DNA of 64,000 nt from Escherichia coli. GTDB lineage: Bacteria; Pseudomonadota; Gammaproteobacteria; Enterobacterales; Enterobacteriaceae. The stretch is taken from assembly GCF_017348835.2 (NCBI RefSeq), contig NZ_CP071375.1. One strand, given 5' to 3'. The notes under the pieces were generated by a model. The model worked only from the letters and a program-made list of their open reading frames with translations. It did no database searches and was not told the DNA's origin. Both the position numbers and the translations under genes were made by a program. Below are positions 1 through 16,004 of the stretch, in pieces (the stretch's first letter is position 1; every line of letters begins with the position of its first letter).

Positions 1-313
1 TGCGGGCGTTGAGTAAGCGACTACCAAATAATTTATATACTGTTCCCGTCATTGCCAGCGCTGCGCTTTCTGGTACTTTGCGTTTCCACAGTGAGGTTTC
101 TCTATTTTTAAACAGGTCATATTCATTATTACTCGACAAACCATATTTCAGTTCGTTAACACAATCACACAGTTGTTCCTCACCTTCCATTTTAAGGCAA
201 AGTGAAAATTGATTTAATAGCGTTTGCTTCGGTAATTCATTACTCATTAGTTGCTTTTCTAAATTAACAAAAGAATAACTTTCTTGTTGAATGAGATTAA
301 TATTGGCAACCAT
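1..313 (-). CDS. partial ORF (>=104 codons, continues past window start), hypothetical protein in AT-rich DNA
   Basis: Hand translation of minus strand: ATG at 311-313 with GGAGG-type SD 5 nt upstream (plus-strand cctcc 319-323); MVANINLIQQESYSFVNLEKQLMSNELPKQ... stays open to position 1; absent from ORF track because incomplete; no family recognised. Confidence 0.35.
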   Translation of the reverse strand, partial: MVANINLIQQESYSFVNLEKQLMSNELPKQTLLNQFSLCLKMEGEEQLCDCVNELKYGLSSNNEYDLFKNRETSLWKRKVPESAALAMTGTVYKLFGSRLLNAR

Positions 314-726
314 TACAGCCTCCTTCCCACGGTTTAAGAGCAAACATGCCACATAATTATTTATAACATCCAGACAGTAAATGAATGATACTGACAATGA
401 TGCTAGTCCATTATCTTTGCATAATATTTGTTAGCTATAGATTTTAAAAATATTTATGAGAAAAGTATGGCACCAGAGAGTGTTTTGACTATCAAAAATC
501 GCTCAAATCTGAACCAAGATGATGAGTTAAGCATTATCTGCAATAATTGCCACTCAGCTCTACAAATAATATTTAAATGCTCCTGAACAGTGATGTAGCA
601 AGACACGTATGGTGCCAACGAAGAATAAAAATTTATAAAGTTCTTATTCAATATAACCGGAATAGTCAGGGACTGATGTAAATGACCGGAATGAATGAGA
701 GAGGCAGCACCGCCCCTCTCCATCAG

Positions 727-1716
727 CTACTCTTCTTCGTTCCCGCCCTCTTCATACGAGCCAAATGGCTTCGCGGGCAGAACGATATACGTGCCTTCAA
801 ACACTGCACCCGGCGTCTCGTCGCCAAAGATTTCTACCTGCATCTGCACCCGTGCTTTTCGTCCGCGCGCCAGACGGTCGAGATCGCCACTTAAGGCACC
901 AAGGTCGGCTACCGCATGAGGTTTACCGCTAATCGGCTTGCTGTAGCGGATATGCGCATCCGCCAGAATAATCGTTCCGCCGAGGTGGCGTTCACGCAGC
1001 ATCAGCCAGATAAGTCCCCAACCGGTGAGCGTCGCCAGTGAGAATAAACTCCCGGCAAACAACGTATGGTGCGGATTCTGATTACCGGTTTCTGGCATGG
1101 TGGTGATAAATTTTTGCCCGGTATATTGCTGAATGCGCACACCCATTTTTTCGCTTAACGGGATATGTTCGTACCACGCCTGTTGCAGCTGCGCGCACCA
1201 GTCACCGCGATGCAGAATGTCATCCAGAGTGGCAACGGGTTTAATCATCAAAAAATGGCGAATCGGCGTGGTAGTTGGGGTGGTGATCTCCCCCTGATTA
1301 ATGAATCCCAGCTTGGCGAAAAACTCCACCGCGTCTTCACGGGCGCTACAGGTCACGCGCTTAACGCCTTCCTGACGCGCCACCGACTCCAGGGTCATAG
1401 CCATCAGCGTTCCTAACCCTTTGTCCTGCACGTCGGGATGAACGGCCATAAAGCGAATGGACGCTTCATTGTCGGCATTAATATACAGTCGGCCTACCGC
1501 CACCAGATTACCCTGCTCGTCGACGACCATCTGGTGATGCGCCATCGCATCCCACGCGTCGCGTTCCGAACCTTTTGGTTGATGCAGGGGCTTACGCAAC
1601 ATTTCCCAGCGAAACTGATAGTAACGCTCTAACTCTTCTTCTGTTTGTGGAACCCGAAGGTGATACATAGCGATACTCTCTCTTGTTTCCCGTGACAACC
1701 CTGGAAGCTGGCTCAT
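727..1716 (-). CDS. fabY: YiiD/FabY-type protein (N-terminal GNAT acetyltransferase domain plus thioesterase-like domain)
   Basis: 329-aa ORF; sequence recognised as E. coli YiiD; 4-bp overlap with downstream dtd. Confidence 0.85.
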
Positions 1717-2150
1717 ACCTGCAACCAGAATGTCACGGGGCCATCATTGACCAGCGATACCTGCATATCCGCAGCGAAGCGTCCTGTTTGCGTGTTCATC
1801 TCTTGCTGACGGCAGCGTTCGACGAAATAGTCATATAACGCCTCTGCGCGATCCGGTGATGCGCCTTTGGAGAAACTTGGGCGCATCCCCCGTTCGGTAT
1901 CTGCGGCGAGGGTAAACTGGGAAACCACCAGCACACTGCCGCCCGCCTGTTGCACGTTGAGATTCATCTTGCCTTCGGCATCGCTAAAGATGCGGTAGCC
2001 GAGCACACGCTCGCACAGACGGTTTGCTTTCTGTTCGTCGTCATCCTTTTCGACACCCAATAACACCAAAAGTCCCGCACCAATTTCGCCCGTCACTTCT
2101 CCCTCCACGGTGACGCTGGCACGGGTTACGCGTTGAATTAATGCAATCAT
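1713..2150 (-). CDS. dtd: D-aminoacyl-tRNA deacylase
   Basis: 145-aa ORF, recognised Dtd sequence (MIALIQRV...SQFTL motif). Confidence 0.93.
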
Positions 2151-3019
2151 GGTTCGTCGTCTTCTTCTTGTTCAGCAGCTTGTTTTAGTTTGCGGTATTC
2201 CCCGAGAGTGACAGTAATTTCCGCGCCAAGCAAGACGATACACCATGTCCAGTAGACCCAAACAAAGAGAATGGGGATCACCGCCAGCACGCCGTAAATG
2301 AGCTGGTATGACGGGAACATGGTGATATAAAGCGCGAAACCTTTCTTTCCTGCTTCGAACAGGAGTGCAGCAACAAACGCGCCGACAATCGCGTCGCGGT
2401 TAGGTACGCGGATGGTAGGAACAATGCTGTACAGCAACCAGAAGGAGATCCACGACAACAGCAGCGGAAAAATACGCAGCACATTGTCGATGACAGTATT
2501 GAGATCGCTCGCCCAGCGCAGGGAGAGCAAATAGGAACTGATCGCCAGACTGGCCCCTGCCAGCAGCGGCCCCAGCGTTAAAATCATCCAGTACACGGCA
2601 AACGAGTAAATTTTTGGTCGCGCTCGTTTACTGCGCCAGATGGTATTCAACGCGCTATCGATGGAGTACATCAACAATAACGCGGTGACGATCAGCCCGC
2701 ACGCGCCAACGGCGGTCATCTTGTTGGAATTGGCAACAAATTGTTCGATATACCGCTGAATAACATCGCCAGTAGCAGGCAGAAAGTTGGCAAAAATAAA
2801 GTGACGCAACTGAATGCTGACGTCGGAAAACATGGGAAAAGCGGCGAAAAGCGCAAAAACAACGGCAACCAGCGGCACTAATGAGAGCAACGACATATAG
2901 GCAAGGTTACCTGCCAGGGTTGTCATATTGTCCTCATCAATGCGTTGCCAGAGTAGTTTCAGCCAGGCCCATAGCGGACGGGTACGGTGCCTGGCTTTGT
3001 CCTGAATGGTTTTTAGCAT
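2147..3019 (-). CDS. yihY: YihY/BrkB-family inner membrane protein
   Basis: 290-aa multi-TM ORF; conserved position between yihX and dtd. Confidence 0.85.
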
Positions 3020-14171: not shown

Positions 14172-14694
14172 ATGTCTGACCATAATCCACTGACATTAAA
14201 ACTGAATCTGCGGGAAAAAATCGCCTATGGTATGGGCGACGTCGGTTCGAATTTAATGCTTAGCATCGGTACTCTGTATCTCCTCAAATTTTATACCGAT
14301 GAATTAGGGATGCCAGCTTACTATGGCGGGATTATCTTTCTGGTGGCGAAGTTTTTTACCGCGTTTACCGATATGCTCACCGGATTTTTACTCGACTCGC
14401 GGAAAAATATTGGGCCTAAAGGCAAATTTCGTCCCTTTATTTTATATGCAGCGGTTCCGGCGGCGTTAATTGCAACGCTCCAGTTTATCGCCACCACCTT
14501 TAGTTTGCCGGTTAAAACGACGATTGCCACCGCGCTGTTTATGATGTTTGGACTTTCATACAGTCTGATGAACTGCTCGTATGGTGCGATGATCCCGGCA
14601 ATTACCAAAAACCCGAATGAGCGCGCGCAGCTCGCGGCTTACCGCCAGGGTGGTGCAACCATAGGGCTATTGATTTGTACCGTGGCGTTTATTC
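14172..14694 (+). pseudogene. yihO: yihO (GPH-family sulfoquinovose transporter) 5' fragment, truncated after about 174 codons by IS629
   Basis: SD aaggag then ATG 14172; paralogous to yihP over the N-terminus; reading frame runs into the IS629 left inverted repeat at 14695 and terminates inside the IS. Confidence 0.8.
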
Positions 14695-14748
14695 TGAACC
14701 GCCCCGGAAATCCTGGAGACTAAACTCCCTGAGAAAGAGGTAAACAGG

Positions 14749-15075
14749 ATGACTAAAAATACTCGTTTTTCCCCCGAAGTCCGTCAGCGGGCGATTCGTA
14801 TGGTTCTGGAAAGTCAGGATGAATATGACTCACAGTGGGCGGCAATTTGTTCCATTGCCCCAAAGATTGGCTGTACGCCGGAGACTCTGCGTGTCTGGGT
14901 TCGCCAGCATGAGCGGGATACCGGGAGTGGTGATGGTGGACTCACCACCGCTGAACGTCAGCGTCTGAAAGAGCTGGAACGTGAAAATCGTGAACTGCGC
15001 CGCAGTAACGATATCCTTCGCCAGGCTTCCGCTTATTTTGCGAAGGCGGAGTTCGACCGCCTCTGGAAAAAATAA
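14749..15075 (+). CDS. IS629 transposase OrfA (HTH/leucine-zipper component)
   Basis: 108-aa [26 protein letters not shown]... recognised as IS629/IS1203-type OrfA; A6 run 15067-15072 is the likely programmed -1 frameshift site. Confidence 0.85.
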
Positions 15076-15962
15076 TGCCACTGCTGGATAAGCTGCGTGA
15101 GCAGTACGGGGGCGGACCGGTATGCAGCGAACTGCATATTGCCCCGTCAACGTATTACCATTGTCAGCAACAGCGACATCATCCGGATAAACGCAGTGCC
15201 CGTGCGCAGCACGATGACTGGCTGAAGAAAGAGATACAGCGCGTATACGATGAAAATCACCAGGTATACGGTGTGCGTAAAGTCTGGCGTCAGTTGTTAC
15301 GGGAAGGTATCAGAGTGGCCAGATGCACTGTGGCACGTCTCATGGCAGTTATGGGACTTGCCGGTGTTCTCCGGGGTAAAAAGGTCCGCACTACCGTCAG
15401 CCGGAAAGCCGTTGCCGCATGCGACCGCGTAAACCGTCAGTTCGTGGCAGAACGTCCAGACCAGTTGTGGGTGGCTGATTTTACCTGGGTAAGCACATGG
15501 CAGGGCTTCGTTTATGTGGCGTTCATCATTGATGTGTTCGCCGGATACATCGTGGGATGGCAGGTCTCATCATCCATGGAAACAACATTCGTGCTGGATG
15601 CACTGGAGCAGGCGTTGTGGGCCCGTCGGCCGTCCGGCACAATCCATCACAGTGATAAAGGTTCTCAGTATGTATCGCTGGCCTACACGCAGCGGCTTAA
15701 GGAAGCCGGATTACTGGCATCAACAGGGAGTACTGGCGACTCGTATGACAACGCGATGGCTGAGAGCATCAATGGTCTTTACAAAGCGGAGGTAATACAC
15801 CGTAAGAGCTGGAAAAACCGGACAGAAGTGGAACTGGCCACACTAACGTGGGTGGACTGGTATAACAATCGACGATTGCTGGAAAGGCTGGGCCATATTC
15901 CTCCGGCAGAAGCAGAAAAAGCTTATTATGCTTCCATCGGAAATAATGATCTGGCAGCCTGA
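15075..15962 (+). CDS. IS629 transposase OrfB (DDE catalytic domain)
   Basis: 295-aa ORF in -1 frame relative to OrfA; ATG overlaps OrfA stop (TAATG). Confidence 0.85.
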   Translation: MPLLDKLREQYGGGPVCSELHIAPSTYYHCQQQRHHPDKRSARAQHDDWLKKEIQRVYDENHQVYGVRKVWRQLLREGIRVARCTVARLMAVMGLAGVLRGKKVRTTVSRKAVAACDRVNRQFVAERPDQLWVADFTWVSTWQGFVYVAFIIDVFAGYIVGWQVSSSMETTFVLDALEQALWARRPSGTIHHSDKGSQYVSLAYTQRLKEAGLLASTGSTGDSYDNAMAESINGLYKAEVIHRKSWKNRTEVELATLTWVDWYNNRRLLERLGHIPPAEAEKAYYASIGNNDLAA

Positions 15963-16004
15963 GTTCACAGATAAAACACTCTCCAGGAAACCCGGGGCGG
16001 TTCA

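Follow-up and report, generated by a model that had tools for sequence, protein, structure and literature searches.

Sulfoquinovose-utilisation genes of Escherichia coli PE164 lie on a 17.3-kb inverted segment between two opposed IS629 copies

Inversions between inverted repeats in E. coli and Shigella, whether the repeats are insertion sequences, prophages or rrn operons, take the same form as the one described here – breakpoints exactly at the repeats, hybrid flanks, and no other change. A 1.15-Mb inversion bounded by prophages has been described in the O157:H7 strain FRIK804 (PMC7430833). The yih (sulfoquinovose) cassette also varies across E. coli, with long and short forms in opposite orientation at an evolutionarily labile locus (PMC12608037). 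IS629, the element found at the breakpoints in this study, makes target duplications of 3–4 bp (PMC3271280).

The window, a stretch of 64,000 nucleotides from an E. coli chromosome, differs at only 4 bases in 64 kb from the reverse strand of NZ_CP114128.1, the closed, 5.03-Mb chromosome of strain PE164, an aEPEC/ExPEC hybrid of serotype O108:H9 from a pig. The sulfoquinovose-utilisation genes of this strain are carried by an inverted segment of 17,328 bp (12367–29694 of the locus sequence L001, corresponding to window −2634..14694) between two IS629 copies in opposed orientation. Compared to the FRIK804 inversion, the PE164 inversion is small (17.3 kb) and bounded by IS629, not by prophage repeats; it lies wholly inside one replichore, ca. 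180–200 kb from oriC in K-12 coordinates, and is not symmetric about the terminus. It affects the same locus as the long/short variation of the yih cassette. However, PE164 keeps the long cassette complete except for a split yihO, the flip also takes in csqR through yiiE, and the cause appears to be a recent pair of IS629 copies, not replacement of the cassette.

The original prediction, that the block from yihO to yiiD is inverted relative to the fdhE–priA backbone, agrees with alignment to K-12 MG1655. Window positions 249–14694 align in the inverted sense with K-12 4078913..4065244, while 16005–64000, from yiiF to priA, align in the same orientation with 4079751..4124987. The relative orientation of the two reference genes differs accordingly – K-12 has fabY/yiiD on + and fdhE on −, whereas the window has the two together on the − strand (Table 1). 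The predicted extent was too short, as the block runs from the yihO fragment to yiiE, continuing left of the window through the rest of a 604-aa ORF. An annotated 'transposase' beside yiiE was considered as an extra mobile element in the rearrangement and rejected, because it is part of this intact ORF, which has no transposase domain and is present in un-inverted relatives. The segment also has a GC skew of −0.031, where the two flanks have +0.015 and +0.014, and its Chi sites (3 of 3) are on the − strand. In skew and in Chi polarity alike, the segment runs counter to its flanks, which points to the inverted arrangement as derived.

Table 1. Features at the inversion junction and in the part of the inverted segment that lies within the window
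Feature	Position	Strand	Basis or remark
Inverted segment, in-window part	1..14694		PE164 annotation; inverted alignment to K-12; orientation opposite to both flanks versus F2_81
604-aa ORF, 5' part	1–313	−	PE164 annotation
fabY/yiiD	727–1668	−	PE164 annotation
dtd	1713–2150	−	PE164 annotation
yihY	2147–3019	−	PE164 annotation
yihX	3013–3612	−	PE164 annotation
csqR	3711–4496	−	PE164 annotation
yihV	4530–5426	−	PE164 annotation
yihU	5594–6490	+	PE164 annotation
yihT	6514–7392	+	PE164 annotation
yihS	7408–8649	+	PE164 annotation
yihR	8716–9618	+	PE164 annotation
TauE/SafE gene	9679–10554	+	PE164 annotation
yihQ	10662–12698	+	PE164 annotation
yihP	12744–14129	+	PE164 annotation
yihO 5' fragment (putative sulfoquinovose transporter gene)	14172..14694	+	174 of 467 codons
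TTC, target duplication of yihO insertion	14692..14694	+	other copy reads GAA, L001 11054–11056, flanking the partner IS
IS629 (IS3 family), 1310 bp	14695–16004	+	ends, ORFs, identity to a named IS629 copy
IS629 imperfect terminal inverted repeats, ca. 25 bp	14695–14719 and 15980–16004		end sequences
IS629 orfA	14749–15075	+	open reading frame
IS629 orfB	15075–15962	+	open reading frame; joined to orfA by programmed −1 frameshift
ATG, target duplication of yiiF insertion (= yiiF start codon)	16005..16007	+	other copy reads CAT, L001 12367–12369, flanking the partner IS
yiiF, intact 72-codon ORF, first gene of un-inverted backbone	16005..16223	+	70 of 72 residues identical to K-12 YiiF; annotated yiiF in PE164

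The termini of the IS629 copy in the window are TGAACCGCCCCGG... on the left and ...CCGGGGCGGTTCA on the right. The left end, TGAACCGCCCCGGAAATCCTGGAGA, equals the reverse complement of the right end, TGAACCGCCCCGGGTTTCCTGGAGA, at 22 of 25 positions, with TG...CA at the extremities. The element in phage BP-4795, whose depositors annotated IS629 OrfA/OrfB, is 99.5% identical over 1310/1310 bp, and the listed copies in Stx2a-converting phages are 98.2% identical. Automated annotation (PGAP) of PE164 records a 'programmed frameshift' and an AL1L pseudoknot at IS629. Related copies have the PGAP name 'IS3-like element IS1203 family'. The known IS629 (= IS1203 or IS3411) of E. coli O157:H7, Shigella and Stx phages has the same 1310-bp length, TG...CA ends, imperfect repeats, orfA/orfB frameshift, DDE (rve) transposase and 3-bp duplications. 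There is no substantial difference in the element, only in the host, a porcine O108:H9 strain with ca. 32 places of IS629, not O157 or Shigella. The lineage as a whole is rich in IS629, with matches at 32 places in the chromosome of PE164 and 27 in F2_81, its closest relative, and this speaks in favour of two insertions.

Both breakpoints are at IS629. One is in yihO, which is intact in F2_81 (1404 bp) and K-12 and split in PE164; the reading frame of the 5' fragment enters IS629 for 8 further codons before a stop. The gene on the other side of the element had been taken for yiiE, but the translation of the ORF, compared with K-12 proteins, is unlike YiiE and identifies it as yiiF. The yiiF gene of K-12 begins at 4079751, the counterpart of window position 16005, so that IS629 sits exactly at the ATG and its right end has replaced the native upstream region of the gene. 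The inverted partner copy that was expected next to the 3' part of yihO does exist, at L001 11057–12366 on the − strand, adjoining a yihO remnant (L001 10173–11060). It is 2,635 bp to the left of window position 1 rather than immediately beside it. The transposase of the partner copy has HTH_Tnp_1, HTH_21 and rve domains (L014 12102–13315).

The copy in the window is flanked by ...GTTTATTC and ATGGGCAG..., and the absence of a direct repeat that had been noticed at this junction is real (TTC versus ATG). The missing halves of the duplications are at the partner copy. The left copy reads GAA–IS–CAT and the right copy TTC–IS–ATG, which are exact reverse complements, against a chance expectation of (1/64)^2 for both 3-mers. 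In F2_81, which is near-identical and served as the reference for the empty sites, the yihO site reads GTTTATTCCGTTGC, with TTC once, and the yiiF site reads CTGCCCATATCC, with CAT (ATG on the other strand) once. As assembled, the middle 17,328 bp of PE164 align to F2_81 opposite to both flanks. When the segment is turned back and both IS copies and one copy of each 3-bp repeat are removed, 30,401 bp align with 0 gaps and 5 mismatches, and nothing else has been gained or lost. Exchanged duplications and a gapless reconstruction are exactly what an inversion between inverted IS copies leaves, in support of the recombination that the original prediction proposed.

In the RefSeq record, the window copy and the partner copy of IS629 have 1 difference in 1310 bp, at position 1151. 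As read in the window, the right copy departs from its RefSeq counterpart at two positions, 418 and 1151; against the left copy of the RefSeq record, only position 418 is different. Such base differences may be polishing noise, and with their small number and their instability from one assembly version to the next they do not tell mechanisms apart.

The inversion junctions were found only in PE164 among 5,426 complete E. coli genomes; K-12 and the rest do not have them. A search for both junctions in these 5,426 genomes found no single-insertion or un-inverted double-insertion intermediates. An exact look-up of the yihO::IS629 fusion protein found at least 14 further draft or metagenome contigs, all of them no longer than 17.5 kb and ending in the IS, and such contigs cannot show orientation or the single-insertion state. 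One of these assemblies, GCA_032490375.1, has a contig of 17,478 bp, or 17,328 bp plus ca. 75 nt per end. This size suggests that the contig is bounded by the IS at both ends and that the draft breaks at both IS copies. Look-ups for its far end with the neighbouring ORF and the FabY allele returned only longer, un-inverted contigs.

Most probably, two independent IS629 insertions were followed by homologous recombination between them. One IS629 would have entered yihO after codon 174, duplicating TTC, and the other, independently and in opposite orientation, would have entered the ancestral chromosome 17.3 kb away, exactly at the yiiF ATG, duplicating that ATG. Homologous (RecA-type) recombination between the 1.31-kb inverted copies would then have flipped the interval – yihO', yihP, yihQ, the TauE/SafE gene, yihR, yihS, yihT, yihU, yihV, csqR, yihX, yihY, dtd, fabY, the 604-aa ORF and yiiE. 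Elements of the IS3 family (IS911, IS2, IS3, IS150, IS629) transpose by copy-out/paste-in via a circular intermediate. The products are simple insertions, and a recombination event of its own is therefore required for the inversion. The order of events is likewise deduced from the end product. Against this reading, the complete genomes yielded no intermediates of the kinds searched for, and two lineage-specific insertions 17 kb apart in a 5-Mb genome are a mild coincidence, with a chance of ca. 0.05–0.1 by rough estimate if a handful of new copies insert at random.

That coincidence would disappear if a resident IS629, in either yihO or yiiF, had attacked the other site in one step, duplicating itself and flipping the interval. 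IS26, IS1 and Tn3-type elements duplicate the IS and invert the intervening DNA in one event, and the product would have the same signature as in PE164, with inverted copies and both 3-bp duplications split in reverse complement. The exchanged duplications therefore fit homologous recombination and transposase-mediated inversion alike. Near-identity of the copies is also as a one-step origin would have it, but with the two compared copies 99.9% alike it is equally expected from two insertions. IS3-family elements are not known to form the cointegrate-type structures behind replicative inversions. A one-step inversion would be out of the ordinary for copy-out/paste-in elements of this family and is quite improbable.

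A somewhat more serious concern, though still an unlikely one, is that the inversion is an artefact of assembly. PE164 would then have two simple insertions, yihO::IS629 and yiiF::IS629, each with direct 3-bp duplications, and the 17.3-kb segment would have been threaded backwards between them. The physical orientation is taken from one closed assembly with unstated read technology, and the four junctions of flank to IS end are the same in both states, so no read or read pair of less than 1.31 kb can tell the orientations apart. For sequencing and assembly, the PE164 paper names Illumina NovaSeq and Unicycler alone; it has no word on long reads, inversions or IS629. In drafts with the same insertion, contigs appear to break off at either IS copy, as in GCA_032490375.1, and the two bases inside the IS that differ between the window and the RefSeq record indicate uncertain polishing of the repeat. 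On the other hand, short reads alone could not have closed a 5.03-Mb chromosome with ca. 32 IS629 copies – data that span the repeats must have been available, and long reads cross 1.3 kb with ease. Had the finishing been guided by a reference, the result would be the common un-inverted order, not one that is unique among 5,426 genomes, and the window and the current RefSeq version agree on the arrangement across the IS despite their slight sequence differences. Any inversion call is formally symmetric, and this is all that can be said for an ancestral orientation in the window with K-12 and the other strains inverted. The relatives, with their unbroken yihO and unoccupied target sites, refute that reading; in addition, the junctions are absent from 5,425 of 5,426 complete genomes, among them that of the near-identical F2_81, and reversed GC skew and Chi polarity are seen only in the PE164 segment.

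An IS-pair inversion of this kind is an ordinary textbook rearrangement, and its significance beyond strain-level bookkeeping is small. PE164 offers a clean worked example of such an inversion with exchanged target duplications, and a reminder to back the orientation of any segment that lies between inverted IS copies with long reads or PCR. The consequences for the genes can be read from their new arrangement. The putative sulfoquinovose importer YihO is probably inactivated, and the yihO 3' fragment and ompL would have lost their link to the yih promoter region. The yiiF gene would be severed from its upstream region, though it points the same way as the IS transposase genes. The inverted 17 kb would now run against the local replication-associated strand bias. 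Judging from the sequence, use of sulfoquinovose in this porcine O108:H9 aEPEC/ExPEC hybrid lineage could be affected, and the yihO::IS629 junction, found on at least 14 further contigs of draft or metagenome origin, could serve as a marker of the lineage.

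Alignment to E. coli K-12 MG1655 showed that the two parts of the window run in different senses. Positions 249–14694 matched K-12 4078913..4065244 in inverted orientation, while 16005–64000 was colinear with 4079751..4124987, from yiiF to priA, broken only by strain-specific insertions. This confirms that the block runs opposite to the backbone, as had been read from the sequence. When window 1–20000 was searched by megablast in a set of 5,426 complete E. coli genomes, the single full-length match was the PE164 chromosome (NZ_CP114128.1), on its reverse strand; neither junction was found in any other of these genomes. 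PE164, isolated from a pig in Nanjing, is described as an O108:H9 aEPEC/ExPEC hybrid, and its publication mentions neither IS629 nor the inversion (PMC12233904).

Only four single bases in the 64 kb (15112, 15845, 30547 and 35014) depart from NZ_CP114128.1, so the window is the PE164 genome itself or a different version of that assembly. The differences may come from assembly version or polishing. Two of the four fall within IS629, one of them causing V13G in orfB. The difference at 30547 changes Trp337 to a stop in the carbohydrate porin gene (29538–30932) in the window version only, and at 35014 the window has the K-12 base, unlike NZ_CP114128.1.

IS629 copies and genes without a K-12 counterpart in and beside the window. 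L001 is the source-record locus that includes the 15 kb to the left; window position 1 is L001 15001.
Feature	Position	Strand	Remarks
IS629, window copy	14695–16004		1310 bp; TG...CA ends
IS629, partner copy	L001 11057–12366		inverted orientation
604-aa ORF	1–313, onward left to L001 13499–15313	-	no K-12 counterpart
TauE/SafE-family gene (sulfite exporter-like)	9679–10554	+	within the sulfoquinovose cassette, flanked by yihR and yihQ; not in K-12 (9610–10602 without K-12 counterpart)
Carbohydrate porin gene stretch	29194–30971		between frvA and rhaM; no K-12 counterpart
Two hypothetical genes (675 and 627 bp)	56333–57859		between zapB and rraA; no K-12 counterpart

Judged by its sequence, the element at the junction is IS629 in every respect tested. 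It has imperfect terminal inverted repeats (22 of 25 positions match), and a programmed frameshift is annotated for its orfA and orfB. Its full-length identity is 99.5% to the phage BP-4795 element, annotated as IS629 by its depositors, and 98.2% to the copies in the Stx2a-converting phages listed. There are 32 places matching IS629 in the PE164 chromosome and 27 in that of F2_81, the closest relative (pig, Australia). The flanks of the window copy (...GTTTATTC left, ATGGGCAG... right) share no direct repeat, which confirms that a target-site duplication is absent there.

The original prediction placed an inverted IS629 copy just left of the window, next to the rest of yihO. The partner copy is present and inverted, and directly adjoins a yihO remnant without its N-terminus (L001 10173–11060), followed by ompL. 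It is not immediately adjacent to the window edge but 2,635 bp to the left of it, because the inverted block does not end at yiiD, as first read, but extends past yiiD/fabY through the 604-aa ORF and yiiE. The latter was carried along in the inversion and has become the neighbour of the partner IS. The gene right of the window copy, formerly taken for yiiE, is yiiF: the ORF at 16005–16223 shares 70 of 72 residues with K-12 YiiF and does not resemble YiiE. The insertion is exactly at the yiiF ATG (window 16005 corresponds to K-12 4079751, where yiiF begins), and the duplicated ATG keeps the ORF intact, with the IS629 right end now upstream. At the other site yihO is broken after codon 174, with 8 more codons read into the IS before a stop. 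Between yiiF and fdhE, at 16224–16400, are REP/BIME-type palindromic repeats (GCCGGATGCGGCGTGAACGCCTTATCCGGCCTAC), which probably explain spurious two-piece BLAST matches reaching query 16377 in strains PT62 and LP5-1. Left of the window, yihN (L001 8058–9323) is interrupted by an internal stop and annotated as a pseudogene in PE164 as well as in F2_81; this transporter gene beside the yih cassette was therefore lost before the yihO insertion.

The partner copy is flanked as GAA|IS|CAT and the window copy as TTC|IS|ATG, so that each 3-mer beside one copy is the reverse complement of a 3-mer beside the other. Both target sites are empty in F2_81: the yihO site reads GTTTATTCCGTTGC, with TTC once, and the yiiF start, on the other strand, reads CTGCCCATATCC, with CAT once. 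When L001 12367–29694 (17,328 bp) was turned back and both IS copies and one of each 3-mer were deleted, the reconstructed ancestor aligned to F2_81 without gaps and with 5 mismatches across 30,401 bp; in the sequence as assembled, the middle part matches F2_81 in the sense opposite to both flanks. A 3-bp duplication agrees with the 3–4 bp reported for IS629 (PMC3271280). Because matching duplications were found at just 21 of 47 IS629 sites (PMC3271280), an absent duplication alone is not diagnostic, unlike the reciprocal exchange of duplications, which is. The segment has a GC skew of -0.031, compared with +0.015 and +0.014 for its flanks and a minimum of -0.006 over 31 baseline windows of the same size, and Chi sites in the segment are all on the minus strand (3 of 3; flanks 2/0 and 9/4, plus/minus). 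The inverted state is therefore derived.

From the rearranged structure we infer both the recombination step and the order of events: two IS629 copies would have inserted independently in opposite orientations, and homologous recombination between them would then have inverted the segment. This is the best explanation and a probable one, and the earlier proposal of recombination between inverted copies is supported, with minor corrections, by the inverted partner and the reciprocally exchanged 3-mers. One-step intramolecular transposition by IS629 should give the same end product, and the nearness of two lineage-specific copies is the sole point in its favour. IS3-family elements transpose by a copy-out/paste-in route via a circle and are not known to make replicative inversions, which leaves this route a low likelihood.

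A wrong orientation of the segment in the assembly is improbable, but deserves weighing – all four flank-to-IS-end junctions are identical in the inverted and un-inverted states, the orientation can be fixed only by reads spanning 1.31 kb, and the publication names just Illumina sequencing and Unicycler (PMC12233904). However, closing a chromosome with about 32 IS629 copies requires spanning data, and reference-guided finishing would be expected to yield the usual arrangement rather than a unique one.

The yihO insertion is more widespread in draft data. The 183-residue yihO::IS629 fusion product has exact matches in 14 further contigs, all with the identical junction, from NCBI GCA_032490375.1 and from Logan assemblies of SRR31611469, SRR27418558, SRR27418881, SRR22895632 and SRR10692685. 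The longest, 17,478 bp, has the length of the 17,328-bp segment with about 75 nt of IS added at either end; for nine index blocks the longest contig is in the 10–20 kb class, with none longer. This suggests that both insertions are common to a clade represented only in draft data, in contigs uninformative on orientation. One contig of 1144 bp (SRR10692685), corresponding to window 13595–14738, has the identical junction in a yihP/yihO background that departs from the window at 20 of 1100 bases, with five synonymous changes among these in the yihO fragment; either a different lineage received IS629 at this very site or recombination moved the interrupted allele.

Some genes of the segment are absent from K-12 but found elsewhere. 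PGAP annotates a 304-aa 'transposase' and a partial 'hypothetical' pseudogene where there is really one intact 604-aa ORF. It is 100% identical over 1815 nt to an ORF in other E. coli (locus L018, 11356–13170) and falls in a 90% cluster of 2,826 members, 'hypothetical proteins' such as EcSMS35_4274; it had no sequence match in Pfam, NCBIfam or PDB. A CX5R-like motif in this ORF, GCKSAKDRT, may resemble the phosphoinositide-phosphatase motif of SopB/IpgD. The TauE/SafE-family gene also occurs in the remaining E. coli genomes listed by megablast, which match window 1–14694 in one piece.

The yih locus has been described independently as structurally labile, with orientation differing between long and short cassettes (PMC12608037), an event distinct from the PE164 inversion. 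Prophage-bounded inversions in O157:H7 are large and terminus-symmetric (PMC7430833), whereas that of PE164 is small and within a single replichore. The kind of rearrangement is already known and has no novelty as such: inversions between inverted repeats are a familiar class in E. coli and Shigella, and this is one of them.
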